Assembly: GCA_963702475.1 (NCBI GenBank)
Contig: CAVPCT010000003.1
Coordinates: forward strand, 320,001-384,000
Reading direction: 5' to 3'
Length of the DNA stretch: 64,000 nucleotides
From: an uncultured Thermoleophilia bacterium
GTDB taxonomy: Bacteria > Actinomycetota > Thermoleophilia > UBA2241
Shown: positions 86-57,237 of the stretch, piece after piece
Layout of the letters: the number at the start of each line of letters is the position of its first letter
How positions within the stretch are numbered: position 1 is the stretch's first letter
Notes under the pieces: model-generated
Told to the model about the DNA's origin: nothing
The model's database searches: none
What the model saw: the letters and a program-made list of their open reading frames with translations, nothing else
Translations under genes and position numbers: made by a program

Positions 86-152
86 CGTAGTTTCCCCAGC
101 CGCGACCCCGTACTATCCCGAGTTCCCCTGCCCCCGCGGTCGTGCCTAGGCT
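86..152 (+). promoter_or_regulatory. Degenerate copy of the shared box + -10 promoter element, upstream of the rhodanese operon
   Basis: CGTAGTTTCCCCAG at 86, CGTACTATCCCGAG at 109 (23 bp later), TAGGCT at 147-152; same layout as the copies at 8006 and 25389. Confidence 0.5.
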
Positions 153-230
153 CACCTTGAGGCCGGTCCCGCGCCAAGCGGACCGCCCCACCCCGTCAGT
201 GACCATTCGGGAACTCACAAGGAGGGCGCC

Positions 231-620
231 ATGCCCAAGTCAGTCGCGGAGATGGTCGGCGAGGCCAGGGCCATGATCGCGGTTGTCTCGCCGCAGGACG
301 CCAAGGCCGAGTCGGACGCGGGCGCCGTCGTCTTCCTGGACGTCCGCGAGCCCGTGGAGTGGGAGCACCACGTCACCGGTGCCCTCCAGGTGCCGCGCGG
401 CCTGCTCGAGTTCGCCGCCGACCCCGCCAGTCCCAGTCACAAGGGAGGGTTGGAGCCCGACGCCAGGGTGATCGTCTACTGCCGCTCCGGCACACGCGCC
501 GCCCTCGCCACCGCCACGCTCGTGACGCTCGGCTACTCCAACGTCGCCAACCTCGAGGGCGGCTTCAACGCGTGGAAGGAAGCGGGCCTGCCTGTGACCG
601 AGCACCACGAGGCGTACTGA
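231..620 (+). CDS. Rhodanese-like domain protein (sulfurtransferase)
   Basis: LDVREPxEW, YCRSGxRA and NLEGGFNAW motifs; AAGGAGG RBS. Confidence 0.9.
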   Translation: MPKSVAEMVGEARAMIAVVSPQDAKAESDAGAVVFLDVREPVEWEHHVTGALQVPRGLLEFAADPASPSHKGGLEPDARVIVYCRSGTRAALATATLVTLGYSNVANLEGGFNAWKEAGLPVTEHHEAY

Positions 621-622
621 CC

Positions 623-1504
623 GTGACGATCCAGGAGCCTGTCGATCATCCACCGCTGGCGGGTCTGACGTTCGTCGTCGCCAGCATGCTGGGGACGGGT
701 CTGAGCCTGACGGTGTCGCAGATCCTCCAGCCTCTGAAGAACGCACGCCTCGTGATCCTGGCGCTTGTCGCCAACTTCGTGCTGGTACCGCTGGTCGCCT
801 ATGGGATCACGCTCGTCATCCCGTTGGACGAACCGCTCAAGATAGGCCTCATCGTGCTGGCCACCGCGGCCGGCGCGCCGTTCCTGGTCAAGGAGGTGCA
901 GGCAGCGAAGGGCGAGCTCTCCGTCGGCGTCGGGCTGATGTTCCTGCTGATGATCGTGACCATCCTCTACGTGCCGCTCGTCCTGCCCCTGCTGCTTCCC
1001 GGCGTCGACGTGGCCGCCGGAGATATCGCCAAGTCCCTGATCGTCACGATGCTCATCCCCCTCGCGCTCGGTCTCCTGTTCCGGTCGCACTCCGCAGAGG
1101 GCGCCGCGCGCTGGGCGCCGGTCATGAACAAGCTGTCCGGCATCGCCCTGCTCCTCATGCTCGTGATGGGCCTGGGCCTCAACATCTCCAGCATCATCGA
1201 CCTGATCGGCTCGTACGGCTTCCTGGCGCTCGTCCTCTTCGTCGTCGCCTCCCTCGCGATCGGCTTCGCCTGCGGAGGGCGGGAAGCGGCCACCCGCAGC
1301 GTGCTGGGGCTGGGCACGGCCCAGCGTAACGTGGCGGCCGCGATCCTCGTGGCGAGCCTGAACTTCGGCGGCACCGCGACGCTGCCCTACATCCTCGTGG
1401 CCTCCATCGTGCTGCCACTGATCCTGCTCCCGGCCGCCAAGGTGCTGGGGAGGCGCAGCGCCGCGATGGCCGGCGAGCAAGGAGAGGGACCTGAGCATGG
1501 CTGA
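623..1504 (+). CDS. Bile acid:sodium symporter (BASS/Acr3-like) family transporter
   Basis: SMLGTGLSLT, ANFVLVP, AAGAPF and AQRNVAAA motifs; multiple TM helices; GTG start inferred just after the upstream stop. Confidence 0.85.
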   Translation: MTIQEPVDHPPLAGLTFVVASMLGTGLSLTVSQILQPLKNARLVILALVANFVLVPLVAYGITLVIPLDEPLKIGLIVLATAAGAPFLVKEVQAAKGELSVGVGLMFLLMIVTILYVPLVLPLLLPGVDVAAGDIAKSLIVTMLIPLALGLLFRSHSAEGAARWAPVMNKLSGIALLLMLVMGLGLNISSIIDLIGSYGFLALVLFVVASLAIGFACGGREAATRSVLGLGTAQRNVAAAILVASLNFGGTATLPYILVASIVLPLILLPAAKVLGRRSAAMAGEQGEGPEHG

Positions 1505-2669
1505 GACAGAACGCGTCAGCACCACCGTGCCGCTGGACTGGAACGAGGTGTGGTTCACCAACTGCCCCATGGTGTCCGCCAACAACGTGGACCAGGAGCT
1601 GGGCTGGTGCCGCGAGGAGTTCAAGAAGATCGGCGTCGAGTACGCCTACTTCCGCCACGCCCCCGAGAACAACTGGTACCCGCACTACATCCACAACCTC
1701 GACAACCTCATCCGCTTCGGCGGCCTCTACCCGCCGATCCACGTCAACGCCGACATCCGCCGCACCGTGCTCCTCGGCGCGACCTGGGTCTACGAGGGCG
1801 GCTGCATGGCGGTGCGCGCCCGCGACAAGGTCTTCCGGATGCAGGACCTGAAGGGCAAGAAGATCGGCATCACCAAGAGCCTGAACACCATCAAGAACGA
1901 CTGGTGGCGGATCCAGGAGCACATGGGCATCGAGAACATGCTCATGCTCCACGACATGACCATGGACGACATCGAGCTCGTCGAGTTCCCGTACCCCGAC
2001 GACTGGTACGACAAGCCCGAGATGCTGCCGTGCGCCGATGAACAACCCGTCCGAGCTGTGGATGCGCCGTGACCACAAGCACGACTACGCCTTCCGCCCG
2101 CTGGAGAAGGCGCTCGTCGCCGGCACGGTCGATGCCATCTACACCCAGAGCAAGGTCTTCCAGCACACTCCAGGAGGCCACCGGGCAGATCAAGATCGAT
2201 CGAGGACCTGTCCAAGCTCCCGGACTGGACGCATCCAGGTCGCCAACACCCCCGCCGTCATCACCTGCACCGACGTGATGGCGAACGAGCACCCCGAGCT
2301 CGTCATCGCCTACATGAAGGCCATGATCAAGGTCGGGCGCTGGGCGAACGAGAACAAGCACGCCGCCGGCGCAGATCCTCAACCGGCAGACGTTCTACCT
2401 CGACGCCGAGGACACCTACCAGGGCATCAAGGACGTCGACATGGTGCCCAGCCTGAGCGCGCGGAACCTGGAGTGCGTCAAGATCGGCAAGGACTTCATG
2501 GTCAGCCACGGCTACATCAAGCACGACTTCGACGTGGACGCGTGGGCCCGCCCGGAGTTCCTCGAGCAGGCGGCCGAGGAAGTCCTCAAGGAGGAGTGGG
2601 CAGCGCCGGAGCTGGAGCAAGCTGCCCCAGGGCGGCGGGCTCGAGGTGGAGGGCATGCGGCTCGGGTAG
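1497..2669 (+). CDS. DszB-like / SsuA-fold protein (putative desulfinase), frameshifted in this assembly
   Basis: WFTNCP, PHY, IRFGGLYPP and DLKGKKIGI resemble DszB; continues across ORFs 2038 and 2441, ending SWSKLPQGGGLEVEGMRLG* at 2669. Confidence 0.7.
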
Positions 2670-2754
2670 GCAGCGGTCGCCGCACCACGTGGCGGGCCGG
2701 ACCGCGTCCAAGGTCCGGCCGCCCGCGCTTCGAGGACCGAGTGAGGAGACGAGG

Positions 2755-3632
2755 ATGACCGCGACTGTCGAGAGAGCGACACGCGCATGCAGCGACTCGG
2801 CTACCGGGCGCCGGACCGATGTCCCCGAGCCGGAGGAGCTCGTGCTCGGTCGAGTACGTCTCCGGTGGGCAGGATGCGCGATCGTCACCCTCAACCGGCC
2901 GCACGCCGACAACGCGGTCACGACGGAGCTCGCCGCTCAGCTGATCGAGATCCTCGAGACCATCGACGCCCGCGCCTCCGTGCGCGTCGCCATCCTGACC
3001 GAGTGCCGGTGACCGGGCCTTCTCGGTCGGCGGCGACCTGTACCAGCGCAAGCAGATGACCAAGGAGCAGTGGCTGCGCCAGCGCCAGGTCTTCGACCGG
3101 GTGCTGCTACAACGCTGCGGCAGCTGCGCCGGCCGATCATCGCCGCGGTCCACGGCATGGCCTACGGCGGTGGCTGCGAGATGGCCATCAGCATGCGACT
3201 TCATCATCGCGTCCGACGATGCCGTCTTCGGCCAGCCCGAGGCGATGGTCGGCCTGTCCGCCGGCGGTGGCTCCCCGGTCTTCCTGCCCCGGCTCCTCCC
3301 TCCGGGCAGGGCCATGCAGATGCTGATGACCGGAGATCCGATCACGGCCCAGGAGGCCTACCGCCTGGGCATGGTCAACGAGCTCCACCCGCGGGCCGAG
3401 CTGATGGACGCGGTCGTGGCCATCGCGGAGCAGGATCGCGCGCCAACTCGCCGACCGCCGTGCAGGCGGTCAAGCGGGCGGTCAGTCATGGGCCAGGGCG
3501 AGCCGGTCGAGCAGGCGATCGCGATCATGATGGAGTCAGCACTGGCGCTCCGTGGTCCATCCCGACCGCGTCGAGGGCATCAAGGCCTACACCGAGGGTC
3601 GCGAGCCGGTGTTCCCGGACCCGGACTTCTGA
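2755..3632 (+). CDS. Enoyl-CoA hydratase/isomerase (crotonase) family, frameshifted
   Basis: IVTLNRP, IIAAVHGMAYGGGCE, CDFIIASDDAVFGQPE and MLMTGDPITAQEAYRLGMVN split over several frames; ends PVFPDPDF*. Confidence 0.85.
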
Positions 3633-3691
3633 GCTGGAGCAAGCTGCCGCACGGCGGCGGGCTTGAGGTCGAGGGCGTCAGGCTGGGATAG
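3631..3691 (+). repeat. Diverged 61-bp duplicate of the 3' end of the DszB-like gene (2609-2669)
   Basis: 52/61 nt identical; encodes SWSKLPHGGGLEVEGVRLG* versus SWSKLPQGGGLEVEGMRLG*. Confidence 0.85.
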
Positions 3692-3733
3692 TCGGGGGAT
3701 CTGTCTGCCGATAGCTCAGAGAACGGAGAGCTG

Positions 3734-4200
3734 ATGAACGACGAAGTCATGGACGAGCTGGGGCCGATCGACTATCTGATCGTCGAGTTCCCGGCCGGCA
3801 AGGCCGACTTCTCCGGCGCGATGGCGGAGAAGCTGAAGGGGCTGGTCGAGGCGGGCATCGTGCGCGTGCTCGACCTGCTCATCATCACCAAGGACGAGGG
3901 CGGCGAGGTCGACGCCTTCGAGCTGCACGAGTTCGAGGACGGAGGCGCCGGCGCACTCCGTGAGATCGGCGCCGAGTTCGCGCAGCTGCTCTCGGAGGAA
4001 GACGTCGCCCACATCGCCGCGGCGCTCGAGCCCGGTACGGTGGCCGCGGCGCTCGTCTGGGAGAACACTTGGGCCGCGCCGTTCGCGGCCTCGATCGCAA
4101 GTCCTGCGGCCGGCTGGTCGGCAGCGGTCGCATCCCCGTGAAGGCGATCCTCGCCGCCGCCGAGGCGGGCGCGGATGCTGCATCGAAGGAAGGAGCTTGA
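3734..4200 (+). CDS. DUF6325-like protein (paralog of 8522), frameshifted near the 3' end
   Basis: LGPIDYLIVEFP...VRVLDLL...LVWENTWAAPF; correct frame ends IPVKAILAAAEAG...KEGA* at 4200. Confidence 0.75.
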
Positions 4201-4507: not shown

Positions 4508-5205
4508 TCAGCCTGCGTCCACGTCCGCCGCCGGCCTGCCGCCGCCGAGATGTGCCACCAGGATGTAGACGCTCACCATGAGCACCCACGCCGGGAAGAT
4601 CTGGATGATCCAGAAGGCCGACGTGAAGACGAACAGCAGGACGAGCGCCACGGCGTAGGTCAGGAACGCCATCCACCTCGGCATCACGCCGGTACGCAGC
4701 CACAGCGTCGCCTGAGAGAGCAGGAAGACGGCGGCCATCCTCAGGGCGTAGACAGCGAAGATCTGCGCCACGACCTCCCGGCCGTAGAGGAACGTGCTGC
4801 TGGCCGCGAACGTCCCGGGCGACTTGGCATAGGCGGCCGCGAGGGCGCCCGCCGACGCGGCGGCCGCGAACACCATCGCCAGGAAGAGCAGCCCGCTGCC
4901 GAGGAAGACGGTGGAGAAGAACTGGTCCTCGAAGCGTCCCAACGCTCCCGCGCCACGGCGATGAACCAGAGGAAGAAGAGTCCGGCGAAGGGGATGAGCG
5001 CCAGCGCGAACTTGAACGCTCCAGAGTCGGCCGCCAGCCAGTCGCCCGTGTCCGTCGCGGCGTCGGCCACGGTGTGATCCAGGATCATCACGCTGAAGCT
5101 GAAGAGCACGGCGAAGAGGATGCCGGCGATGGCGCCGGCTATGGGCGTCGCCGCCCGCCGCGGGACCTTCGTGATGGTGGGGCGACCTGACGCAGTGGGA
5201 TTCAT
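4508..5205 (-). CDS. Hypothetical integral membrane protein (paralog of 11686..12408), one frameshift
   Basis: AGAIAGILF, PFAGLFFLWFI and EDQFFSTVFLGSGL motifs shared with the paralog. Confidence 0.75.
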
Positions 5206-5240
5206 GTCGATCCTCTCTGACGTGAGGAGCATCGGCCGCC

Positions 5241-6540
5241 TCACTTCGGCTGATCGTCCGTGCGAGGCTGGTCGAGACCGCCGGCTCCCAGATGGCGGCG
5301 CTGGCGTGGCATCGTCGCTGCCACAGCCTCCGCCGCTTTCGGGTGCCTCTCGGTACGGCCCTCGTACCAGCGATGATAGACGCTCACCAGCGGCGCCGAG
5401 GTGAGGCCGTGGAGCACGACACTGAGCGCGACGGTGACGATGACCGCGGTGAGAAGCGTCTCCCCCTGCGGTACCCCTCGTTCGATGACGAGCAGGCCGA
5501 ACACGACCGAGGCGAGGCCACGTGGTCCGAACCAGCCTATGAAGGCCACGGTGGGCGCCCGGACTCCCTTGCCCAGCAGAGCGATCGCGACCGGGAGCAT
5601 GCGCACCAGCGTGAGGCTGAGCGCCGCGTACAGGACGACCTGCCAGGTGATGTGCGGGATCGCCCAGGCGATCGCGGCGGCGCCGAAGCCGATCCAGGTC
5701 ACGGCCGCGAGCACTCCGCCCGTCTCTCGGTGAACAGCGTCGATTCCGAACCCTGTTCGCCGGAGAAGCGGCCGAACGCCATGCCGCCCACGAAGGCGGC
5801 GATGAAGACGCTGCCACCGAGCCCCAGTGCGATGGCGAAGGCCAGCAGCGCGGCGGCGAGCGGGAGGATCTGCCGCCACTCGCTTCCGGTCCAGCCGCGC
5901 TGGCCGGCGACCCGCAGGAGCAGGCCGCCCAGCACGCCGGCGATCACGCCGGCCAGGAGCCCCCATCCGATCTGCGCCGCAGCGTTGCTGACCACGGCCC
6001 AGGTGATACCCGTCGTGAGCTCGGTGTTCGCGAGATCGAGCGCGACGAGGAAGAAGGGCACGGCGAGGCCGTCGTTGAGACCGCTCTCCACGTCCAGGGC
6101 CTGCCGCACGCGCGCCGGCACGGACGTGTCGGTGACGACGCGCTGGCCGAGGGCCGCGTCGGTCGAGCAGAGCATCGTGGAGAGGAGGAAGACTGAGGTG
6201 AGTGCCATGCCGGGGAACGTGAGGACCCCCACGCCGAAACCGGCGAGCACGTTCAGCGGCTAACGGCTGAGCAGCAGGCGCTCGGCCTGCCAGCTCGATG
6301 ACGCAGGGCGCCCAGGTCCAGTCGGGCCGCGTCGCTGAACAGCAGGAGGACGAGCGTCACCTCCGTGAACCTCGGCCACGGCGCTCTCGAGCGAGACGTC
6401 GATCAGTCCGAGAACGTACGCCCCGGCGACGAAGCCGGCGGCCACGAAGACCAGGGCCGAGGTGATGCGCGCCGGTCGAGCGGCCGCGAGAACGCGCTCC
6501 ACGCAAGGACCAGGACGGCGATGATCGCCAGTGTCATCAT
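5241..6540 (-). CDS. NhaP/CPA1 cation:proton antiporter, several frameshifts
   Basis: TDAALGQ, VESGLNDG and GWFGPRGLAS motifs; close paralog of 14075..15383. Confidence 0.85.
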
Positions 6541-7780
6541 GCCGCAGGGCTCCTGTCAGGTGTTGGCTGCTCGAGCAGAGCCGCGAGACGGTCCCTGCGC
6601 AGATGAAGCGGTGGCCGGCGGGTGGCCGGGGCCAGGTCGCCCAGGTCGTTCAGCAGGCGCTCGAGGCGCCGCCGCACCTGCGCGTGGCCGGCGCCCATGT
6701 CGATGAGCTCATCGAAGGACAGCGAGACATAGTCGTCCCAGCGCGGGAGCGGAAGGAGTACGCGCGCCCGGCCGCGGGGCCCATCACCCCGACGTCGAGG
6801 TCGCGCCCGACCAGCGCTCGCAGCAGGCTCTCCACGTTGTCGAGGACCTGCGTGGCCGTGGTCGGATCGTTTACGGCCGGGACAGGGCGCGCAGCGCGAT
6901 GTCGACGAGCACACGAAAGGCCAGCGCGGGGTCCTGTTCGAAGGTCCGCTCCGCGCCGGTCCGGATCGCCTTCACGACCACCGAGTCCAGCGACGAGGCG
7001 GCCGCCCCATGGACGACGGCGATCGGGGTGTGCGCATGCACCATCTCCCCGATGGGGACGACGATCTCGACCGCGGCGTCCGCTTCTTGCGCGGCGGCGA
7101 TGATCCCGGGACATCGATCGCCTGGATGATGCCGGGCCTCTGGTCCAGAGCAGCTCGCGCCGGCCATCGGGAAGGGCGCGCCGTCCCCGGTCGGGTCGGC
7201 CTCGCTCAGCGGCCTGTCCGGATACACGCCGTCGAGGACCTGACGCCCGCGGCTCGTGACTGGACGAGCGTCGAGGCGAGCTGGACAGAGCTGAACGCGC
7301 GCATCTGCAGGCTGCGAAAGAGGGCGATCGCCGCGAGCAGGAGGACGACGATCACGATCGGGATGAGACCTGTGACTTCCTCGTCGCACCCGTGCTGAAG
7401 GCGGCGACGAACGAGAAGACGAGTACGCCGGTGTAGAACCCGAATGCGTGCCAGACTATCGGCGCCGTGTAGAACAGGTTGAGCCGCGGGGTGAACGTGG
7501 TCGAACCGAACTGCACGACCAGGAACAGCAGCGAGAAGATGACCCCGATGAAGGTGAGAAGGCCGGCCCCAACGGCCAGCAGCACCTGGACGGTCTCGAC
7601 GCGGGGCACCGTGAAGCCCACGGGGATCTGCGCTATGACCAGTCCCAGGAAGACGCCGGCGAGCACGTAGAAGAGCTGGGTGATGCCGACGCGCAGACGC
7701 CGGCGCCGCCGGAGCCCTCGGCCAAGCTTCCGTATGGGCCTGGTGTCCGCGTACGCGCTACCGGTGCGCCCTGTCTCCAC
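6537..7780 (-). CDS. DUF2254-like membrane protein, frameshifted
   Basis: LVVQFGSTTFTPRL, ERTFEQDPALAFRVLVDIALRALS and AVNDPTTATQVLD motifs in successive frames. Confidence 0.8.
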
Positions 7781-7869: not shown

Positions 7870-7912
7870 AGCCTAGTAGGTATGCGAGCCGCTGTGACCT
7901 CGTGAAACTACG
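7870..7912 (-). promoter_or_regulatory. Conserved promoter element driving the DUF2254-NhaP operon
   Basis: Minus strand reads CGTAGTTTCACGAGGTCACAG-N16-TAGGCT. Confidence 0.75.
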
Positions 7913-7982
7913 TGCCCGTTTCGGCTGCGTCCGCGGGCAGAAGCGGAGGTCAGATCAGACGCGTCGGCGCGACGCGACACCC

Positions 7983-8048
7983 CGTAGTTCCCGAGACGCC
8001 GTCCTCGTAGTTTCCCGAGGTCACAGCCATTCCCGTTCACACTAGCCT
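7983..8048 (+). promoter_or_regulatory. Conserved promoter element driving the 8096-11646 operon
   Basis: CGTAGTTCCCGAG at 7983, CGTAGTTTCCCGAGGTCACAG at 8006-8026, N16, TAGCCT at 8043-8048. Confidence 0.75.
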
Positions 8049-8095: not shown

Positions 8096-8386
8096 ATGTG
8101 CTGTTTCGTCACCGTGTTCGTCCTGCTCGGCCCGCGCGCTGGCGTGGTCGTGTGGTGGCTCGTGGACCCCGCCCGCTGGCAACTCGCGTTCAGCAGTTGG
8201 CTCTGGCCGGTGATCGGCTTCTTCATCGCGCCGTGGACGACCATGGCCTGGGTGGCCGTGGCGCCGGGCGGCGTGAACGGACTCGACTGGCTGTGGGTCG
8301 GGCTCGCCGTCTTCCTTGACGTCGCCTCCTGGAGCGGCGGTGCCTACGGCAACCGTGGCCGCATCTCCGGCTCTCAGGCTGCCTGA
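8096..8386 (+). CDS. Small Trp-rich membrane protein
   Basis: MCCFVTVFVLLGPR...GFFIAPWTTMAW; GGAG RBS; about 3 hydrophobic segments. Confidence 0.75.
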   Translation: MCCFVTVFVLLGPRAGVVVWWLVDPARWQLAFSSWLWPVIGFFIAPWTTMAWVAVAPGGVNGLDWLWVGLAVFLDVASWSGGAYGNRGRISGSQAA

Positions 8387-8521
8387 GCAGGGGTACCAGC
8401 GAGCGGACCAAGGAACGGGCCCGGGAGGGGCAGGCACGACCCCCCGCCTCCCCTCCCGGGACCCCTCTGAGAGACCAACGACAGCGACATGCGCTGCGGC
8501 GTTGCGAAAGGAGGCTGACCG

Positions 8522-8989
8522 ATGAGCCAGCCATCAGCAGAAGACCTGGGCCCCGTCGACTACCTCGTCGTCGAGTTCCCCCGCGACCGCGCCAACTTCT
8601 CCGGCGAGGTGAAGGCCGAACTCGCCGCGCTCGTGCAGACCGGTACCGTGCGCGTGCTCGACCTGCTCTTCCTCAAGAAGCACGCGGACGGCACGTTCGA
8701 GGGTTTCGAGAAGCACGACTTCGACGATCCCGATGCGGCCGCCCTCAGCGACCTTGCCGACCAGGTCCAGGAGATCCTCACCGAAGAGGACCTTGCCAAC
8801 ATCGCCGGCGCCCTCGAGCCCGAGACCATCGCCGCCGTGCTCGTCTGGGAGAACGCGTGGGCGGCGCCGTTCGCAGGCGCCCTGCGCCGCGCCGGCGGCC
8901 AGCTCGTGGCCACCGGCCGCATCCCCATCCAGGCCATCCTCGCCGCCGCCGAAGAGGCGGAGGAGCGAGCGCAGACGGACGGGGAGTGA
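8522..8989 (+). CDS. DUF6325-like protein
   Basis: LGPVDYLVVEFP...VWENAWAAPF...GGQLVATGRIP; AAGGAGG RBS. Confidence 0.85.
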   Translation: MSQPSAEDLGPVDYLVVEFPRDRANFSGEVKAELAALVQTGTVRVLDLLFLKKHADGTFEGFEKHDFDDPDAAALSDLADQVQEILTEEDLANIAGALEPETIAAVLVWENAWAAPFAGALRRAGGQLVATGRIPIQAILAAAEEAEERAQTDGE

Positions 8990-9135
8990 CGCACGGCCGG
9001 AGACACCGTCTCCGTGCCAGAGAGAAGCGGAGGACAGGACGCAGAAGGCGTCCGCCGTGAGCGGAGGCTGAGTCGCAGTGGGCGAGTGTGCGGCGGTCGT
9101 GACCGCCGCGTCAGTAGAAGACATGAGGAGGGGAT

Positions 9136-9516
9136 TTGAGTAACAGAGGCACAGAGGTCGGAGGCTCCAACTGGAGCATGTTCGCCGGGGTCTTTCTGGC
9201 GATCGCCGGCCTGTTCAACGCCCTGGACGGCCTGGTGGCCCTCGTCCAGAAGGAGTACTTCAACGAGGGCGCCCTGGTGTACCAGAACATGCAGGTGTGG
9301 GGCTGGGTGTTCCTCATCGTCGGCATCGTGCAGCTCGTCGTGGGCTGGCAGGTCATCAGCCGCGCCGCATGGGCGCGCTGGGTCGGCGTGGTCATCGCCA
9401 TCGTCAGCATGATGATCGCCTTCTTCGCCATCGGGGCGTACCCGTGGTGGGCGCTGCTCATCATCGTGATCGACGCCATCGTCGTGTGGGGCCTCACGGC
9501 CCGTTGGGAGAGCTGA
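9136..9516 (+). CDS. DUF7144-like 4-TM membrane protein
   Basis: WSMFAGVFL...WGWVFLIVG...WARWVGV...AYPWWAL; GAGGAGGG RBS with TTG start. Confidence 0.75.
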   Translation: MSNRGTEVGGSNWSMFAGVFLAIAGLFNALDGLVALVQKEYFNEGALVYQNMQVWGWVFLIVGIVQLVVGWQVISRAAWARWVGVVIAIVSMMIAFFAIGAYPWWALLIIVIDAIVVWGLTARWES

Positions 9517-9520
9517 ACCT

Positions 9521-10042
9521 ATGAGCGAGATGATGGTCCTGGGCTTCGAGAACGAGATGGAGGCCGACCGCTTCGGCCTCAAGCTCGCGGAGCTGCAGAA
9601 GGACATGATCGTGCAGCTGAGCGACGCCGCCGAGGTCGTGCGCGACGCCGACGGCAAACCGCACGTGAAGAGCGGCGACCACCTGGTCGGCGCGGGCGCC
9701 ATGGGCGGCGCCTTCTGGGGCATGCTCTTCGGCCTGCTCTTCTTCATGCCCTTCCTGGGCATGGCGATCGGCGCCGGCATGGGCGCGCTCTTCGGCAAGA
9801 TGGGGAAGACCGGCATCCAGCAGAAGGTGCTCGAGCAGATGGGCGACGCCATCCCGCCCGGCAAGGCCGGCTGGTTCCTCATCATCACTCAGGTGACGGA
9901 GGACAAGTTCCTGGCTGCCATCGAGGGCACGAACGCGACGCTCGTGCGCTCGAACCTCACGGCTGAGGAAGAAGAGCAGCTCAAGCACGCATTCGGTGCC
10001 AAGCACCACAAGAAGCAGACGGCGGAGAGCGAGACCGCCTGA
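9521..10042 (+). CDS. DUF1269 domain protein
   Basis: DAAEVVRDADGK followed by glycine-zipper GAGAMGGAFWGMLFGLLF...GAGMGALFG. Confidence 0.85.
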   Translation: MSEMMVLGFENEMEADRFGLKLAELQKDMIVQLSDAAEVVRDADGKPHVKSGDHLVGAGAMGGAFWGMLFGLLFFMPFLGMAIGAGMGALFGKMGKTGIQQKVLEQMGDAIPPGKAGWFLIITQVTEDKFLAAIEGTNATLVRSNLTAEEEEQLKHAFGAKHHKKQTAESETA

Positions 10043-10150
10043 GCTTCACGACCTGAGCGCGGCGGGGCGGTTCTCCCCGGCCTCCCGCCGCGCCACTCCT
10101 GTCACCTGGCTGCCGGGCGCGCCGGCGTGGACATCTGAGGAGGTGCCGCC

Positions 10151-10849
10151 GTGGCGGACACACCGGCCACACGAGGGGCGAAGAGCAAGAGTCGCCTGGA
10201 GGCGTTCAGCGACGGCGTCTTCGCCATCGCCATCACCCTGCTCGTGCTCGAGATCGCCGTCCCGGTGGCCGCAGGCGGCCACCTGTTCTCGGAGCTCCTG
10301 CACGAGCGCACGGTGTACATCGGGTACTTCATCGCGTTCATGAGCATCGGCGCGGTGTGGATCGAGCACAGCGCTCTCACCGAGGCCCTCGAGCGCGTGG
10401 ACGCCGGATTCCTGCGTCTGAACCTGCTGCTGTTGCTGCTCGTGTCCTTCCTGCCGTTCCCGGCCAGGGTGATGGAGGAGTACCTGACGCTGACCGACAC
10501 CGAGGTCGGTGGCGAGCGGACGGCCGTGGCGTTCTTCGGGCTCGTCCTCGTCCTCATGAGCCTGATGCTCATCGTCCTGGGACGCTACGCCGAGCGCGAA
10601 GGGCTCTTCGGTGGTGACCTGGCCGAGGAGCGCCGCGAGGACAACCGCCTGCGCTATCAGCTCGGTCCCGCCCTCATCGCCTACATCGCCGCCACCGCGC
10701 TCGGGCTCGTCCAGCCGTACATCGGCGTGACGCTCTACTTCCTGATCGGCGTCTACCTGCTCCTGCCGGTCCGCACCATCAAGCGGCTCCTCGGACGGGG
10801 CGGCAAGGATGCGCAGGCCGGCGACTCGACAACCGATGGGAGTGACTGA
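10151..10849 (+). CDS. TMEM175 family K+ channel (DUF1211)
   Basis: RLEAFSDGVFAIAITLLVLEI signature. Confidence 0.92.
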   Translation: MADTPATRGAKSKSRLEAFSDGVFAIAITLLVLEIAVPVAAGGHLFSELLHERTVYIGYFIAFMSIGAVWIEHSALTEALERVDAGFLRLNLLLLLLVSFLPFPARVMEEYLTLTDTEVGGERTAVAFFGLVLVLMSLMLIVLGRYAEREGLFGGDLAEERREDNRLRYQLGPALIAYIAATALGLVQPYIGVTLYFLIGVYLLLPVRTIKRLLGRGGKDAQAGDSTTDGSD

Positions 10850-11646
10850 TGGCCACCACACCGAATGCAGCAGGCCCGGCGCTCGACGCCGAGCAACTGG
10901 TCGAGCTCCTCAGGCTCGTCAAGGGGTCGAAGAGCGTAGAGCTCAAGCTCACCATACCGGCCGAGCACCACCGTGCCACCGTCGAGGCTCTGAGCATCGA
11001 CCCCCTCGACGGCCAGATGCGGCTGGTGACGTTCTTCGACACGCCCGATCTGACGCTGAACCGCGCCGGCGTCGTGGTGCGGTGCCGGCGCATCCAGGGC
11101 GGCAAGGCCGACTCGGTCGTCAAGCTGCGCCCGGTCGTGCCGGACGACTTGCCGGCGAAGCTCCGCGCGCTGCCGTCGTTCGGCATCGAGGTGGACGCCA
11201 TGCCCGGCGGCTTCGTGTGCTCGGCCTCGTACAAGGCCGAAGCCGACCCCGGCCAGACGAAGCTCGCCAGCCTCGGACAGGCGCCGGTGCACAAGGCCTT
11301 CAGCAAGGAGCAACGGGCCTTCTTCAAGGAGCACGCCCCTGAGGGCCTCGGCCTGGACGATCTCAGCGTGCTGGGTCCGGTCTTTGTGATCAAGGTGCCG
11401 TTCACACCCGCAGAGCTCGCGCACAAGCTGGTCGCCGAGCTGTGGCTGTTCCCGGACGGCGCCCGCATCCTCGAGCTCTCCACGAAGAGCACGCCGCAGG
11501 ACCTCGCGGACGTCCTCGCCTCCGTCCACGACCACCTGGTGTCCAAGGGCGTGGACCGTCACGGCGACCAGCAGACCAAGACGAAGCACGCCCTGGAGTT
11601 CTTCACGAAGGCTCTGGAGGCTCACCGGGAGAACGCGGGCGACTGA
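10849..11646 (+). CDS. CYTH-like (triphosphate tunnel) protein
   Basis: SVELKL (ExExK-like), FFDTPDLTL, VVRCRR, VVKLRP, ILELSTK and QQTKT. Confidence 0.7.
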   Translation: MATTPNAAGPALDAEQLVELLRLVKGSKSVELKLTIPAEHHRATVEALSIDPLDGQMRLVTFFDTPDLTLNRAGVVVRCRRIQGGKADSVVKLRPVVPDDLPAKLRALPSFGIEVDAMPGGFVCSASYKAEADPGQTKLASLGQAPVHKAFSKEQRAFFKEHAPEGLGLDDLSVLGPVFVIKVPFTPAELAHKLVAELWLFPDGARILELSTKSTPQDLADVLASVHDHLVSKGVDRHGDQQTKTKHALEFFTKALEAHRENAGD

Positions 11647-19191: not shown

Positions 19192-19323
19192 GACCTCCGT
19201 GGGGCGGTGGACCGAGACAGGTGTGCGTGAGTGCGCGAGGTGACTCCGGGTCTGCGACGGCAAGCCCTCCGCTGCCGAAAGCCTTCATCCCGGGAGGGGG
19301 CCGCTCGAGTTGTCTGCGCTGCA

Positions 19324-19341
19324 TCTTACCGATGGGTAAGA
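19324..19341. promoter_or_regulatory. Putative TetR operator
   Basis: TCTTACC-GATG-GGTAAGA perfect inverted repeat between the divergent arylsulfatase and tetR genes. Confidence 0.65.
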
Positions 19342-19408
19342 AAGATGCAAGTGCTGGCCTCGGTAGCTTCCCAAGGTGATTGAATGGCAGCGGAACAAGG
19401 AGGCTCTG

Positions 19409-21922: not shown

Positions 21923-23740
21923 TCAGGCGCCGGCCGCCACCCGAGCGGGCCGGCTCGGGCGACTCAGGTCTTCTGCTCCGTCGTCGGGGCGTCGTCGCCG
22001 CCGTGGGTCTGTCTGCTCGCGCCCGTGCCGGCCGCCGGCTTCAGGCGCCGGCGGCAGAGGTCCGAGGGCCTCGACCGCTCGCACCGCCGCCTTCAGCGTC
22101 GGGTAGAAGTGGTCCCGGTCGAGTGTGTCGAAGAGGCCGTAGCTCAGCACGCGGTCCTGGAGCCGGTCGCGGAGCTCGGCGAACGCCAGGTGGACCCCCC
22201 GCGCGTTGAGCTCGTTGTCCAGCTGCTCGAGCATCCCGGCCGCGGTGACGTCGATGTCGGTGACCGCCTCGCACTGCAGGACGATCCAGGCGGGCGACTG
22301 CTCGCGGGCGAGGCGCCGGACCTGCTCACGGAAGATCCCGGAGTTGGCGAAGAAGAGCGGCGCCTCCCAGCGGTACACCACGATCCCCGGACGCTGGCGC
22401 GCGTCCGGATACTTGTCCACGCCGTGCCATCCGGGCAGCCCGTCGACCTGCCCGAGCACGGCCCCATGGGGCCACCAGTTGCGGCGGAAGAACATCAGGA
22501 CCGCGAGGATGACGGCGATGGCGATGCCCCACAGCACGCCGAAGAGGATGACGCCGACGGTGGCGACGAGAGAGAGCGCGAGGGCGCTCTTGCGGACGCG
22601 GAAGTAGCGGCCGAGGATGGCGAGGTCCATCAGCGAGACGGCGGCGAAGATCACGACCGCGGCGAGCGTGGTCTGCGGGAGGTCGGCCAGCAGCGAGGGG
22701 AAGAACAGCAGCATCAGGGCGACGAGGCCGGCGCCCACCAGGCCCGTGACCTGGCTCTTGGCGCCGGATTGTTCGGCCACCGCCGTGCGCGACCCGCTCG
22801 TCGACACCGCGAAGCCCTGGAAGAAGCCCGCGGCGATGTTGGCGGCGCCCATGCCGATCATCTCCTGGTCGGGGTCGACCTCGTCGCCGCGCCTGGCGGC
22901 GAAGCTCGTCGAGGTGGCGATGGTGTCGGTGAGAGAGACCAGGGTGATGCCGACGGCGGCGATGAGCAGAGGCCCCACGTCACTCCAGGTCGTGAAGGGG
23001 AAGGACGGCGTGGGGACGCCCTGCGGCAGGGAACCCACCGTCTTCACGCTCTGCTCGGCGAGCCCGAACACCGCCGACGCGACGGTGGCCCCGACGACCG
23101 CCACCAGCACGGACGGCACGCGGCGCGTGAGCAGCGGGAGCAGGAACAGGACCGCCAGGCACGCCAGCCCGACGGCGAGCGTGGTGGCGTCGGTCTGGTC
23201 GAGGCCGGCGAAGAAGGCCTGCACGTCGTCGATGAACGTGTCCGCGTCGGTCGAGAACCCGAACAGCTTGGGCAGCTGGCCGACGATGATGGTGACGGCC
23301 AGGCCGTTCATGTAGCCGACCTGTACCTCCTTGGAGAGCAGGTCGGCCACGAAGCCGAGCTTGCCGAGGCCCATACCGATCTCGATGAGGCCCACGAACA
23401 CGGCCATCATGCCGGCCAGGGCGATGGCGGTGGCCGGGTCGTCCGTCACCAGCAGCGGCACGATGGCGGCGAAGATCAGGGGCGAGACGGACGAGTCCGG
23501 CCCGAGCACCAGGATCCGCGACGGGCCGAAGATGGCGTACCCGATCAGGCAGGCGATGGTCGTGTAGAGGCCGGTGACGGGAGGCAGCCCGGCCAGCTCC
23601 GCGTAGGCCATCCCCTGCGGGACCAGGATGGCGGCCAGCACGATGCCGGCCACCAGGTCCTTGCGCAGCCAGCGCCGCTCGTAGGAGCGGACCGCTGCCA
23701 CGCCCGGCATCCACCGTGCGATCCCCTCGTGACGCGCCAT
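21923..23740 (-). CDS. SulP/SLC26 anion transporter with STAS domain
   Basis: DLVAGIVLAAILVPQGMAYAELAGLPPVTGLY, STSGSRTA, PLFFANS and VTDIDVTA. Confidence 0.92.
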   Translation of the reverse strand: MARHEGIARWMPGVAAVRSYERRWLRKDLVAGIVLAAILVPQGMAYAELAGLPPVTGLYTTIACLIGYAIFGPSRILVLGPDSSVSPLIFAAIVPLLVTDDPATAIALAGMMAVFVGLIEIGMGLGKLGFVADLLSKEVQVGYMNGLAVTIIVGQLPKLFGFSTDADTFIDDVQAFFAGLDQTDATTLAVGLACLAVLFLLPLLTRRVPSVLVAVVGATVASAVFGLAEQSVKTVGSLPQGVPTPSFPFTTWSDVGPLLIAAVGITLVSLTDTIATSTSFAARRGDEVDPDQEMIGMGAANIAAGFFQGFAVSTSGSRTAVAEQSGAKSQVTGLVGAGLVALMLLFFPSLLADLPQTTLAAVVIFAAVSLMDLAILGRYFRVRKSALALSLVATVGVILFGVLWGIAIAVILAVLMFFRRNWWPHGAVLGQVDGLPGWHGVDKYPDARQRPGIVVYRWEAPLFFANSGIFREQVRRLAREQSPAWIVLQCEAVTDIDVTAAGMLEQLDNELNARGVHLAFAELRDRLQDRVLSYGLFDTLDRDHFYPTLKAAVRAVEALGPLPPAPEAGGRHGREQTDPRRRRRPDDGAEDLSRPSRPARVAAGA

Positions 23741-23769
23741 CGCTACCTGCCCTCCCGTCGGCGCGACGG

Positions 23770-24690: not shown

Positions 24691-24699
24691 GTGACCACC

Positions 24700-25412: not shown

Positions 25413-25457
25413 AGGTCGCCGAGGCGTCGCGCGTGAAGGGCTGACGGGCGTGGCCGA

Positions 25458-29704: not shown

Positions 29705-29711
29705 CCCCGCC

Positions 29712-35480: not shown

Positions 35481-36914
35481 TCAGGGGTCGCAGAGGGTGG
35501 CGGCGTCCTTCTCGAAGCGCATCTTGCACATGGCGTACTCCTCCGGCACCGTGATCGGGTAGTCGCCGTCGAAGCAGGCTCGGCAGAACTGGTTACGAGG
35601 CAGGCCGGTGCTGGCCTGCAGGCCGTCGAGCGTGAGGTAGTGCAGGCTGGTGGCTCCGACCTTGCGGCGGATGTCGTCCACGCTCATGTTGGCGGCGATG
35701 AGCTCCGCCCGCGTCGCCATGTCGATGCCGTAGAAGCAGGGCCACTGGATCGGCGGAGAGCTGATGCGCAGGTGCACCTCGGCGGCCCCGGCGCTGAACA
35801 GCATCTCGACCAGCTTGCTGGTGGTGTTGCCGCGCACGATGGAGTCATCGACCACCACCAGCCGCTTCCCCCGGATGACCTCGGTCAGCGGGTTGAGCTT
35901 CATGCGGATGCCCACCTGCCGCAGCTGGTCGTCGGGCTGGATGAACGTGCGGTGCACGTAGCGGTTCTTGATGAGGCCCTCGGTGTAGGGGATGCCGGAG
36001 GCTGAGGCGTAGCCGATGGCGGCCGGCATGCCCGTGTCGGGCACGGGGATGACGAGGTCGGCCTCGACCGGGGCCTCCATGGCCAGGTGCCTGCCCATCT
36101 CCTGGCGTGCGATGTGCAGGGTCCTGCCGGCCATCACGCTGTCGGGCCGCGCGAAGTAGATGAACTCGAAGATGCACAGGGCCGGGCGCGAGCCCTCGAG
36201 CTCCACGCGCTCGCTGCGCAGGCCGTGTTCCTTGTCGGCGATGACGATCTCGCCGGGCTGGATCTCGCGCACGAAGTGGGCGCCGATGATGTTGAGCCCG
36301 GCCGTCTCGCTGCTGATGACGGGGTGCCCCTCGTACTCGCCAAGACAGAGCGGGCGCACGCCGTAGGGGTCGCGGAAGCCGACCAGGGAGTCGCCGCTCA
36401 TCACGGCCGCCGAGAAGGCGCCGCGGATCTTGGCCACTGCAGTGCGCACGGCGCTGAGCAGGTCGCTGTCGGCCTCGTGGGCGATGAGCGCCGTGATGAC
36501 CTCGGTGTCGGTGGTCCCCGAGAACTTGACGCCCTGGCGCATGAGCTCGTCGCGCAGCTCCGTCGTGTTGACGAGGTTGCCGTTGTGGCCCAGGGCGATG
36601 ACGTCGCCGTTGCGGCTGCGCACCAGCGGCTGGGAGTTGGCCCAGTGGCTCGAGCCCGTGGTGCTGTAGCGCACGTGACCGATGGCGTGCTGACCGCTGA
36701 GGCTCTGCAGCATCTGCTCGTTGAACACCTGGCTGACCAGACCGAGGTCCTTGATGACGGTGATCTGGCCGTCGTCGCTCACGGCGATGCCCGCGCTTTC
36801 CTGCCCGCGGTGTTGCAGCGCGTAAAGCCCGAAGAAGGTGAGGCGCGCGACGTCGTGACCCGGCGCGTGGATGCCGAAGACGCCACAGCTGTCATGGAGG
36901 TGGTCGTTGTGCAC
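35481..36914 (-). CDS. purF: Amidophosphoribosyltransferase
   Basis: SCGVFG, LQHRGQESAG, GHVRYSTTG and VVVDDSIVRGNT. Confidence 0.96.
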   Translation of the reverse strand: MHNDHLHDSCGVFGIHAPGHDVARLTFFGLYALQHRGQESAGIAVSDDGQITVIKDLGLVSQVFNEQMLQSLSGQHAIGHVRYSTTGSSHWANSQPLVRSRNGDVIALGHNGNLVNTTELRDELMRQGVKFSGTTDTEVITALIAHEADSDLLSAVRTAVAKIRGAFSAAVMSGDSLVGFRDPYGVRPLCLGEYEGHPVISSETAGLNIIGAHFVREIQPGEIVIADKEHGLRSERVELEGSRPALCIFEFIYFARPDSVMAGRTLHIARQEMGRHLAMEAPVEADLVIPVPDTGMPAAIGYASASGIPYTEGLIKNRYVHRTFIQPDDQLRQVGIRMKLNPLTEVIRGKRLVVVDDSIVRGNTTSKLVEMLFSAGAAEVHLRISSPPIQWPCFYGIDMATRAELIAANMSVDDIRRKVGATSLHYLTLDGLQASTGLPRNQFCRACFDGDYPITVPEEYAMCKMRFEKDAATLCDP

Positions 36915-44163: not shown

Positions 44164-44243
44164 GGTTCCCTCCAGTCCCGTCGGTTGTCCTCGATGCCGT
44201 GTTTGTCCACCGCAGAGACCCCTCAAACGGCGGCGAGACTCCA

Positions 44244-46213
<1,970 letters not shown>

Positions 46214-55145: not shown

Positions 55146-55861
55146 TGCTCTCGGGGGGTGTCTCCGAGCGCGCTCACAACCTGCTGCTCGGCGAGAACGT
55201 GCGCATCGGCGAGGGCGTCGTGTTCGGCGCCAACGTCGTGGTGTACGACGACACCGTCATCGGCGACGGCTGCTTCATCCAGGACGGCGCCGTGCTGGGC
55301 AAGGTGCCGTCCCTCTCGCCGACCAGCACCGCCAAGCGCGGGGAGCTCGCTCCGCTGGTGCTCGGCGCCGGCTGCGTGGTCAGCACCGGCGCGGTGGCCT
55401 ACCGCGGTACCACGCTCGGCGCCGGCTGCATCCTCGGCGACTACGCCGGCGTGCGCGAGCGCTGCACGCTTGGCGAGCGTGTCGTCGTCGGCCGCGGTAG
55501 CGTCGTCGAGAACGACACCACCATCGGCGACGGTACCAAGATCCAGACCAACGTGTACATCACCGCCTACATGACGATCGAGGACCGCTGCTTCATCGCC
55601 CCGTGCGTGCAGACCACCAACGACAACTTCATGGGGCGCACCGAGAAGCGGCATGCGCTCATCAAGGGCGCGACCATCCGCCGCGGCGCCCGCGTCGGCG
55701 GCGGCGTGGTGCTCTGCCCCGGCATCGAGATCGGCGAAGAGGCGTTCATCGCCGCCGGCGCCGTGGTCACGAAGGACGCGCCGGCCCGCAAGGTGCTCAT
55801 GGGCGTGCCGGCGCGCGTCGTGCGCGACGTGTACGAGGACGAGTTGCTCGAGAACCAGTAG
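55142..55861 (+). CDS. Hexapeptide-repeat N-acetyltransferase (WbpD-like)
   Basis: Left-handed beta-helix repeats; TKIQ, FIAP..TND, AGAVVTKD and GVPAR. Confidence 0.88.
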   Translation: MMLSGGVSERAHNLLLGENVRIGEGVVFGANVVVYDDTVIGDGCFIQDGAVLGKVPSLSPTSTAKRGELAPLVLGAGCVVSTGAVAYRGTTLGAGCILGDYAGVRERCTLGERVVVGRGSVVENDTTIGDGTKIQTNVYITAYMTIEDRCFIAPCVQTTNDNFMGRTEKRHALIKGATIRRGARVGGGVVLCPGIEIGEEAFIAAGAVVTKDAPARKVLMGVPARVVRDVYEDELLENQ

Positions 55862-55873
55862 TCTCGCCGCCCT

Positions 55874-57178
55874 TCAGGGCTCTGCAAGCGAGGACAGGTG
55901 CGTGGCGAGGCTTGGCCCGCCCTTGGGCAGTCCCAGCTTGCGGCGGATGCCCGCGCGGTGGAACGACACCGCGGAGCGTGAGACGTGCAGCGCCTCGGCG
56001 ATCTCGGCGCTCGTCTTGCCGAGGCGCACCAGGTTGGCCACCTCGCGCTCGCGGCGCGTGAGCGGCTCGCCGCCGCTGCCCGGTAAGCTCAGGTGCTGCC
56101 CGAACGGCCCGACGATCTCGCGCAGGTTCACACGAAGTGCCTCGAGCTCGAGACGCTCGGGCCGGTGCCGCAGCGCCCGGCCGAGGCGCTCGATGGTCGG
56201 CTCGAGCAGCTGCTCCACGTTGTGCACGACACGCTGCTCGAGCTCGCGGTTGTCCTGCTCGCGCTGCTCCAGAAGCACGCGCAAGGCCGTGTTGCGCTCG
56301 TCGAGGATGGTCGCCTGACGGCGGAGCGCCCGCTCGGAACGGGCCAGGTCGTCCTGCATCGCCTTCTGCTCCGTGATGTCCGTGCCGAGCAGGAAGTGCG
56401 CCCTGCGGCCCTCGATGTGGCAGGGGATCACGGTGAGCAGCAGGCTCTTCTTCTCGCCGTGTACGTCAGACTCCACCTCGAGCTCGGTCGTGACCTCGGG
56501 ATCCTCCCGGTAGCCCGTGACGAGGTCGACGACCTCGGGCGGAAAGTCATCGCGCACCGAGCAGCGGAGCATCTCCTCGCGCGAGCGGCGGAAGAACGAG
56601 AGTGCATAGGCGTCGGCGTCCACGTAGGCGCCCGACCCGTCGACCTGCAGGGCCGGGCTCGGTAGCCGGAAGAGCACGCTGCGCAGCTCCTCGACCTCGC
56701 GGGCCATGTCCCGGGCGCGCAGCTCGTGCGTGACGTCTCGCATGGCGCCGATCATGTTGGTCGGACGGCCGCCGCGGCCCGTGAGGAGCACGGCCTGGTC
56801 GCTGAAGACGAGCCAGCGGCCGTCCCTGTGCTGCATGCGGTACTCGGCGTGGAACGGCCTGCCGCCCTCAATGCTGCCGGCCAGCCCATCCATGACAGCC
56901 TCTCGGTCGTCGGAGTGGACGCATTCGAGCCAGCCGTCCAGGGCCCGCGGAAAGGCGCCGGGGTCGAGGCCGAGGAGCTCGTCGATCTGCTCCGAGAACG
57001 AGATCGCACCTGTCTCGAGATCCCAGTCGTAGAGGACGTCGAACGTGACCTGCAGGAAGGCCTGGAGGCGAGGGTCCTTCGCGGTGATGGGAGGGCGCGA
57101 TCGTTGCCCGTCCACAGCTGGGCGGTCTCGGGCACGGAGGATCCGGCGGAGCGCAGGAGGCACGTGGATACTAGGCAT
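55874..57178 (-). CDS. PAS-PAS-LuxR HTH transcriptional regulator
   Basis: DWDLETG...VHSDD...EYRM..DGRW PAS domain; second PAS; LTRREREVA...HRAGIRRKLG. Confidence 0.88.
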   Translation of the reverse strand: MPSIHVPPALRRILRARDRPAVDGQRSRPPITAKDPRLQAFLQVTFDVLYDWDLETGAISFSEQIDELLGLDPGAFPRALDGWLECVHSDDREAVMDGLAGSIEGGRPFHAEYRMQHRDGRWLVFSDQAVLLTGRGGRPTNMIGAMRDVTHELRARDMAREVEELRSVLFRLPSPALQVDGSGAYVDADAYALSFFRRSREEMLRCSVRDDFPPEVVDLVTGYREDPEVTTELEVESDVHGEKKSLLLTVIPCHIEGRRAHFLLGTDITEQKAMQDDLARSERALRRQATILDERNTALRVLLEQREQDNRELEQRVVHNVEQLLEPTIERLGRALRHRPERLELEALRVNLREIVGPFGQHLSLPGSGGEPLTRREREVANLVRLGKTSAEIAEALHVSRSAVSFHRAGIRRKLGLPKGGPSLATHLSSLAEP

Positions 57179-57194
57179 AACCTGGTAGTCACCT

Positions 57195-57237
57195 CGTAGT
57201 TTACTGGTCTTGCTCCCGGCGATTCTGGCGATAGATT
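57195..57237 (+). promoter_or_regulatory. Degenerate copy of the shared promoter element, upstream of the cupin
   Basis: CGTAGTTTACTGGTCTTGCTC-N16-TAGATT; same CGTAG-to-(-10) distance as the four strict copies. Confidence 0.45.

Follow-up and report, generated by a model that had tools for sequence, protein, structure and literature searches.

The closest described relatives of the regulatory system reported here are the response regulators (RRs) FixJ and NarL and the receiver-only proteins FixT and Osp. For FixJ, systematic evolution of ligands by exponential enrichment (SELEX) gave the class I consensus GTAGTTTCCC, the site at fixK reads TAAGTAATTTCCCTTA, and the regions protected there run from -69 to -44 and from -57 to -31 (PMC4999443). 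At yeaR, NarL bound to a 16-bp site at -43.5 activates via the C-terminal domain of the RNA polymerase alpha subunit (alphaCTD) without touching sigma4, which keeps a large contact with the -35 element (PMC10853779). FixT and Osp inhibit kinase autophosphorylation and are not phosphorylated themselves (PMC7078487, PMC9430884). Here we analysed a recurring promoter element in 64,000 nucleotides of DNA from an uncultured Thermoleophilia bacterium (the window; positions 320001-384000 of contig CAVPCT010000003.1, hereafter C3). We propose that this motif is very probably the activator site of a two-component system carried by the same genomic island, whose kinase, RR and lone receiver genes lie together at C3:312128-315390, 5 kb before the window. 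Positions without a contig prefix are those of the window.

The promoter element in the island and its relatives

The initial annotation had reported four near-identical copies, each oriented toward the first gene of an operon and each with GTCACA in the -35 slot 17 bp before the -10, and all of this was borne out. The copies at 7912 (-), 8006 (+), 25389 (-) and 31523 (-) have 0, 1, 1 and 2 mismatches, and 100 dinucleotide shuffles gave no match (0 expected by chance). All four are intergenic, face a gene start 90-135 bp ahead and consist of the box, GTCACA, a 17-bp spacer and TAnnnT. The element itself is a 16-bp imperfect palindrome, CYCGTARTTTCCCGAG (consensus halves CYCGTART and TTCCCGAG), that begins two bases before CGTAG. 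The box ends 23 nt before the -10 and spans about -51 to -36, with its centre at about -43.5, counted from a predicted start (-10 taken as -12 to -7). Specifically, promoter 2 (7870-7914, -) comprises the box at 7899-7914, the -35 GTCACA at 7893-7898 and the -10 TAGGCT at 7870-7875; promoter 3 (8004-8048, +), at 45.4 bits the best-scoring site of the genome, the box at 8004-8019, GTCACA at 8020-8025 and TAGCCT at 8043-8048; promoter 4 (25347-25391, -), 96 bp from 25391 to the gene start at 25295, the box at 25376-25391, GTCACA at 25370-25375 and TAGCGT at 25347-25352; and promoter 5 (31481-31525, -) the box at 31510-31525, GTCACA at 31504-31509 and TATCCT at 31481-31486. The second CGTAG boxes described for three copies (86/109, 7983/8006 and 25412/25389) are all present, as the distal box of the rhodanese promoter at 84-99 (+, 23.1 bits; 23 bp upstream of its proximal box) and as distal half-sites of promoter 3 (7981-7996, +) and promoter 4 (25399-25414, -). 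Two further copies had been called degenerate. The one at 109 is a full box (24.5 bits) and forms promoter 1 (107-152, +; proximal box 107-122, TTCCCC in the -35 slot, -10 TAGGCT at 147-152), with a spacer one base longer than in the other promoters; the extra base may be an assembly indel.

A genome scan with a profile trained on relatives only (scores in bits) returned eight sites with a 17-bp spacer at 23-45 bits, all within C3:312-352 kb, and the next best match scored 12.4. With the site at 107 the island holds nine promoters, four of them just upstream of the window (C3 312628-, 319283-, 319293+ and 319696+), and all nine are intergenic and face a gene start. A regulon of five to six operons had been suggested: five promoters in the window stand, and the copy at 57195 drops out. 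The latter (57193-57237, +) has the correct spacing to TAGATT but only a left half-site (-1.5 bits). It belongs to the divergent promoter of a PAS-PAS-LuxR gene (55874-57115), beyond the limits of the island. Near-matches at 19362 and 56508 were also rejected (-18.8 bits; inside a gene). The proximal box is identical in three island promoters (C3 319293, 319696 and 320107), all with TTCCC in the -35 slot, and at C3:319268-319308 (L002:19265-19311) two divergent promoters have boxes 9 bp apart, so that each can act as the distal site of the other.

The same architecture recurs at related loci, 61 of which supplied 104 sites. Directly downstream of the box, a hexamer that the seed profile did not include reads GTCACA in 63 of these sites and is GTYAC-like in 82. 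Of the 104 sites, 72 have a left half-site 22-24 bp further upstream, with one other match anywhere from 9 to 40 bp; its right half is degenerate and GTYAC follows it in only 2 of the 72, so that GTCACA is a part of the promoter and not of a repeated box. The large sigma4 contact with the -35 at yeaR would explain selection on GTCACA. Loci selected by the RR have TAnnnT exactly 23 nt behind the box in 66 cases, and at +22 and +24 once each, and related sites show a pyrimidine followed by a purine 7 nt past the -10, the pattern of a start site. The proposed principal-sigma geometry agrees with the host's housekeeping TTGACN-N17-TAnnnT, which is enriched 7- to 49-fold in this genome (GTCACA version: 7 seen against 0.7 expected), and an activator box abutting the -35, with tandem sites two helical turns apart, likewise fits the sequence. 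In several verrucomicrobial loci the -10 reads CAnnnT with box and -35 unchanged, which fits recognition of the -10 by a host sigma factor and of the box by a mobile RR. In this genome the spacers that separate box from -10 are 35% identical (near background), and those of relatives have a mean identity of 47%.

Co-occurrence of the motif with a response regulator

A LuxR/NarL-type binder had been proposed. This class fits, but the likely protein is the RR at C3:314764-315390 and not either LuxR protein of the window. It is the only one of the genome's 25 LuxR-type helix-turn-helix (HTH) loci with a site within 10 kb. The RR is of NarL/FixJ type (REC-GerE): a receiver with a GerE/LuxR HTH, encoded beside a histidine kinase as in that family, and with a 16-bp inverted-repeat site at a fixed position before its candidate target promoters (predicted start), as in NarL/FixJ regulons. 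The kinase (C3:312746-314743; GAF-PAS-PAS-HisKA_3-HATPase) is cytoplasmic without a membrane segment, and the lone receiver gene (C3:312128-312538) is divergent from it. Across 80 RR loci (the best 80 genome matches to the RR, 65-85% identical; a few bins may be mislabelled), the recognition helix RTVEFHKY is identical in 79 of the 80 aligned RRs, and the kinase core lies directly upstream of the RR in 76 of the 77 loci with enough DNA. Sensor regions vary from one to several PAS domains with or without GAF, and 7 of 25 checked kinases are membrane-anchored.

We observed the motif in all 19 RR-positive genomes among 53 of the same genus and in 2 of the 34 RR-negative ones (one 2-mismatch site each). 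In a class sample of 150 genomes, the RR and the strict motif each occurred in five, of which four were shared, and the fifth RR genome has variant sites; kin are not independent in these co-occurrence counts and many genomes are incomplete. A full site is present in 75 of the 80 RR loci, including 14 of the 19 that supplied no training site. Moreover, 1.25 Mb of RR-selected loci contained 98 box matches compared with 3-6 in Markov controls, and whole-genome scans of 30 RR genomes gave matches in 20, almost all near the RR (reversed control: none). When metagenomes were scanned for the motif only (122 loci, 119 after removal of 3 duplicates; 69 loci shorter than 2 kb), 79 of the 119 loci held part of the kinase, RR or receiver. 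Only these three genes are common across phyla: they occur in 59, 63 and 52, respectively, of 63 non-actinobacterial RR loci, and the next best cargo in 16.

Islands that lack the RR allow motif and cargo to be separated. The DszB-like cargo gene occurs in 28 of the 53 congeners, RR-negative ones included. Apart from regions of G392 and G395, which carry single orphan sites, all eight island loci from seven RR-negative congeners keep the rhodanese-DszB-like operon, lack the box and have a divergent TetR gene. Because these islands retain the cargo genes without the box, the motif follows the RR and not the cargo. Upstream of the rhodanese gene (26 rows, including 3 duplicate fetches), we found the box in 14 cases, four of which had been selected by motif, and a divergent TetR gene in 12; since the two were never found together, box and TetR replace one another at this operon. 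Together, these genome comparisons show that the palindrome, the GTYACR hexamer and TAnnnT keep a fixed spacing near this RR in many phyla and that the motif tracks the RR rather than cargo genes. The TetR gene divergent from rhodanese-DszB-like operons is conserved, and its promoter DNA is AT-rich and TACTAC/GTAGTA-like (L223-L230, L008, L091, L141); the ligand of this TetR could reveal the substrate of the DszB-like enzyme.

Among the matches listed, the RR is found under the titles Actinomycetota, Acidobacteriota, Gemmatimonadota, Verrucomicrobiota and Planctomycetota, and also in delta-, beta- and gamma-proteobacteria, Krumholzibacteriota and others, about ten phyla in all. On a quick tree of 75 full-length distinct RRs with low support, the 10 phylum labels require 16 changes, where 9 would be the minimum. 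This is compatible with transfer and no proof of it, and foreign contigs may be present in some bins. Nearly identical RRs come from bins that are assigned to different phyla, and a Bifidobacteriaceae-titled row falls among Verrucomicrobiota (L004/L006, L067/L068, L077), which points to recent transfer or mis-binning. A cultured carrier is Rhizobium leguminosarum ATCC 14479, whose plasmid NZ_CP030763 encodes the kinase, a D-R-H receiver and an RR whose helix is identical; its sites are weak (11-17 bits) and look partly decayed.

The proposed circuit and its rivals

The lone receiver accompanies the RR in 68 of the 80 loci, with 36 genes downstream of the RR, 8 divergent from the kinase and 28 elsewhere. 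Despite this shifting gene position, a box lies within 260 bp of 60 of the 72 receiver genes. The protein has a NarL/RcsB-type receiver fold, is 35-40% identical to the RR's own receiver domain and retains Ser/Thr and Lys along with the phospho-acceptor Asp. It reads D-R-H where the RR reads D-D-H: the second Mg-binding Asp is replaced, mostly by Arg (D-R in 57 of 66), and D-D was found in 0 of 62 matched receivers. A single receiver domain with a degenerate Mg-binding pocket, encoded under the pathway's own box, is what characterizes FixT- and Osp-type proteins. A predicted complex of the receiver with the kinase-core dimer scored 0.46 against 0.00 for the best control, a result graded weak by the tool; runs agree in at least 90% of contacts and the partner's local confidence (pLDDT) is at least 81. 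Of 157 solved pairs, 116 attain the mark used for this score, as do 2 of 215 mismatched ones, and scores of at most 0.60 comprised 18 solved pairs and both mismatches; the predicted score may reflect likeness to solved kinase-receiver complexes. A phylum sample centred on G165 contained the receiver in 2 of 201, and atlas look-ups returned generic receiver and GAF clusters only. The two-component family is common in soil and sediment assemblies, with 3361 receiver homologs at E 1e-15, although some of these may fall outside this clade.

We propose that the soluble GAF-PAS-PAS-HisKA_3 kinase phosphorylates the RR, a dimer of which would bind the palindrome at about -43.5, beside the non-consensus -35, and, by analogy with NarL at yeaR, may recruit the RNA polymerase of the host with its principal sigma. 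A second, weaker RR dimer would occupy the upstream half-site (22-24 bp away) and provide cooperativity. On balance we also favour, by analogy, a role in which the RR switches on the lone receiver, which would then damp the kinase in the manner of FixT and Osp. Far more tentatively, the kinase could sense a sulfur or redox metabolite of the cytoplasm, and the regulon could serve sulfinate and persulfide handling together with ion, pH and polyphosphate homeostasis.

This arrangement resembles FixL-FixJ-FixT of Sinorhizobium meliloti and Caulobacter, likewise a kinase, an RR and a lone receiver in one module, and FixT is induced downstream as a feedback inhibitor (PMC7078487), the role that we propose for the receiver here. 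The core of the box equals the FixJ SELEX consensus GTAGTTTCCC, with GTA(A/G)TTTCCC common to both, and the fixK site TAAGTAATTTCCCTTA has the same inner TA/GG asymmetry; FixJ also uses a 16-bp imperfect palindrome and two bound regions at its promoter, like the box pair here (PMC4999443). The recognition helices (RTVEVHRA in S. meliloti FixJ, RTVEFHKY here) share the pattern S-x-R-T-V-E-x-H-[RK]. However, the outer arms differ (TAA/TTA for FixJ, CTC/GAG here), and the strong box at about -43.5 is unlike the FixJ protection reported at fixK (PMC4999443). The soluble kinase carries HisKA_3, whereas FixL is of the HisKA class, and it scores 66 bits against a FixL cut-off of 850; the RR scores 110 bits against the FixJ cut-off of 255 and is thus not a FixJ ortholog. 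The kinase contains PAS_3 domains, and a consensus of 33 kinases showed no FixL-like motif. The four-Cys motif of FixT is not in the receiver consensus, and neither fixK nor nifA targets were found among 41 annotated representatives of first downstream genes or among the window targets. By these sequence comparisons, the system is not FixLJ.

Escherichia coli NarX/NarL likewise pairs a HisKA_3 kinase with a REC-GerE regulator. The yeaR site, like the box here, has its centre at -43.5 and directly precedes a weak -35, and ogt has tandem NarL sites, the second 33 bp away compared with 23 bp here (PMC10853779). The yeaR site TAACCAATAAATGGTA differs from the box sequence (PMC10853779) and the NarL helix reads TVKVH against TVEFH here; the RR scores 113 bits against the NarL cut-off of 250, nitrate-respiration targets are absent, and the present system has the additional lone receiver. 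The best NCBIfam score of the RR was for MctR of Rhizobium (159, cut-off 300), followed in our comparison by PRK15369 for Salmonella SsrB (151, cut-off 242), and that of the kinase was for MctS (147, cut-off 700); among natural proteins in the PDB, EsrB matches the RR's HTH best. No matching binding motif for MctR or SsrB was found in the limited literature retrieved. Osp of Rhodobacter sphaeroides is a single receiver without the Mg-binding acids and is induced by the pathway it inhibits, but it acts on the CckA-ChpT-CtrA relay and also lacks the Lys that the receiver here keeps (PMC9430884). In short, the logic and the box core are like those of FixL-FixJ-FixT and the position is like that of NarL, yet the proteins fall below the FixL, FixJ, NarL, MctR and SsrB cut-offs. 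Literature queries with the motif and signature peptides listed only eukaryotic papers on unrelated subjects. We found no description of the motif, the signature peptides or the cargo families, in a search that left most subscription journals, supplements and regulon databases outside, and no publication pairing two of the five cargo DUF names; the gene switch of kinase, RR, receiver and promoters is apparently undescribed.

Other roles can be imagined for the receiver with the RR still as binder. The receiver could serve as a phosphate sink, or it could pair with the receiver domain of the RR so that the dimer is poisoned or stabilised; either would suit a NarL/RcsB-like protein that resembles that domain and retains Asp, Ser/Thr and Lys, and we give these roles a smaller but substantial chance; none of the 62 matched receivers has the second Asp of the acidic pocket, and the precedents FixT and Osp act on the kinase and are not phosphorylated (PMC7078487, PMC9430884). 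It is unlikely that the RR represses by blocking polymerase. The box does touch the -35 hexamer, and the orthologous rhodanese operon elsewhere has a divergent TetR, a family that usually represses. A box that blocks polymerase is at odds with a non-consensus -35 slot (GTCACA, or TTCCC in three promoters, against housekeeping TTGACN) and with the strict spacing to the -10, which is a requirement of activators, and NarL activates from the same position (PMC10853779).

Improbable, too, is that an alternative sigma factor or another regulator reads the string, even though GTCACA is unusually well kept for a weak -35 and GTTTCC-N4-GTCACA loosely fits the spacing of the OmpR-type FxkR. The -10 reads TAnnnT, or CAnnnT in the verrucomicrobial loci, as expected of a host sigma, and no sigma or OmpR family was among the top shared gene clusters that were annotated, a search that was not exhaustive. 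The FxkR-type direct repeat GTTACA-N4-GTTACA was rejected on column frequencies, the left hexamer having T and C where FxkR has A and A; reading TCACA as a CRP half-site was rejected on the same grounds. The LuxR and TetR proteins of the window were also rejected as binders, given that the 80 RR loci hold no homolog of the island TetRs or of the PAS-LuxR protein (55874-57115) and that the LuxR gene at 44199-44963, outside the homolog query set, has no site within 10 kb. Least probable of all, with a very small chance, is that the copies are promoter-duplication relics or recombination sites of a mobile island without shared regulation. Three promoters near the window start do share a 23-nt identical stretch, and spacers are partly alike among relatives; in this genome, however, spacers have drifted to near-background identity while box, -35 and -10 were kept, all nine sites are intergenic and gene-facing, and RR-negative islands are without sites.

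Several observations weigh against activation by the RR of this island. Five of the 80 RR loci have no site above threshold, 12 of the 72 receiver genes have no box directly upstream, and three genomes (G056, 95% complete, G392 and G395) have a site with no RR or receiver found; these orphan sites (L084:10371, L231:13477, L232:8806) are remnants or assembly gaps. The sulfatase, major facilitator superfamily and DUF1269-pair operons of the island are in the window without a box. Three loci that contain the RR or the motif have their rhodanese gene under TetR and not the box, so the cargo is not fixed. Many sites are orthologous promoters, as the spacer identity among relatives indicates, and co-occurrence among kin carries the dependence stated above. 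Helix and box are both invariant, which leaves no room for a covariation test, and the kinases share no conserved cofactor motif and differ in sensor domains among relatives.

If the RR activates from this box, a speculative extension is a host-independent plug-in switch: an RR with a frozen helix, an Asp-to-Arg pseudo-receiver and a promoter cassette whose GTCACA would be silent alone and read by any host's principal sigma once the RR sits at -43.5. Such a cassette might cross about ten phyla, swap sensor domains (cytoplasmic GAF/PAS or periplasmic), adapt only its -10 and capture operons by promoter replacement, displacing TetR at the sulfinate/persulfide operon. The locus offers a complete testable circuit for an unstudied two-component family, with kinase, regulator, probable feedback receiver, predicted binding site, promoter geometry and targets. 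It groups DUF6325, DUF7144, DUF1269, DUF2254, the DszB-like enzyme and TMEM175-type channels into one predicted regulon. Compared with FixJ (same core, other outer arms, two changed helix residues), it is a natural test of how a LuxR-type helix reads flanking bases, and a promoter that keeps box and -35 across phyla would be a candidate broad-host inducible part.

Candidate target operons and other features of the window

The pur gene cluster is interrupted by the island, which covers about 58 kb and is bounded by purM on the left (C3:296140-297279) and purF on the right (35481-36914, -). With operon extents inferred from strand and spacing, promoter 1 precedes operon 1 (231-4141, +), which encodes a rhodanese (231-620), an SBF transporter (623-1504), a DszB-like putative desulfinase (1497-2669, frameshifted), an enoyl-CoA hydratase (about 2755-3632, frameshifted) and DUF6325 (3734-4141). 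Operon 2 (4508-7780, -) encodes DUF2254 and a Na+/H+ antiporter, both frameshifted, and a membrane protein; operon 3 (8096-11646, +) a small membrane protein, DUF6325, DUF7144, DUF1269, a TMEM175-family channel and a 265-aa protein of no family; operon 4 (21923-25295, -) a protein of about 200 aa and no family, a Ppx/GppA phosphatase and a SulP-STAS permease; and operon 5 (25533-31421, -) a CoA-disulfide-reductase-like protein with a rhodanese domain, an SMP-30 lactonase, a short-chain dehydrogenase/reductase, SCP2 and a glycogen-debranching-like enzyme. The reductase scores below the CoA-disulfide reductase equivalog cut-off. Targets upstream of the window are the lone receiver with SHOCT and DUF6325 genes, PPK2 with a P-type ATPase, and two small membrane proteins.

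The top cross-phylum cargo consists of the DszB-like protein and the CoA-disulfide-reductase-rhodanese fusion (each in 16 of the 63 non-actinobacterial loci). The DszB-like gene has a same-strand box no more than 3 kb upstream in 22 of 27 loci, and the fusion gene in 16 of 25. Other recurrent neighbours are a DcaP porin, glutaminase, an aspartate-alanine exchanger, PPK2, SulP and sulfatase. With low confidence, we read this cargo as sulfur-compound handling plus acid and ion homeostasis. An intact DszB-like homolog (L012:5348-6511) matches DszB with E 4.5e-8, including the invariant N-C and His/Arg positions. The DszB-like protein is cytoplasmic and highly conserved (65-93% identity among 15 aligned), and family libraries give only a weak SsuA/NMT1 match.

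The sequencing runs available for transcript evidence match the region only in part and as contigs. Four such runs gave no start information, and their contigs, which cannot show starts, are uninformative on transcription of the regulon; one nearly identical contig has its first base at 8028, before the predicted start, and this run may be DNA. Besides the four frameshifted genes of operons 1 and 2, an FGGY kinase and an amino-acid permease are frameshifted (regions 1497-3632, 5241-7780, 31550-32987 and 57806-59450), probably through assembly indels. EutQ-like cupin genes flanking the permease are duplicated (57489-57686 and 59689-59847; 83% DNA identity over 191 bp). An inverted repeat with 8-bp arms at 19320-19349, between the sulfatase operon and a divergent TetR gene, is likely a TetR operator. 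The genome encodes about seven PAS-PAS-LuxR paralogs with a TVxFHR-type helix, and GTAGT/ACTAC repeats in the divergent upstream DNA of four of them (57116-57240, C3:1064520, C4:354303, C5:951574) suggest a separate motif family that includes the 57195 site.

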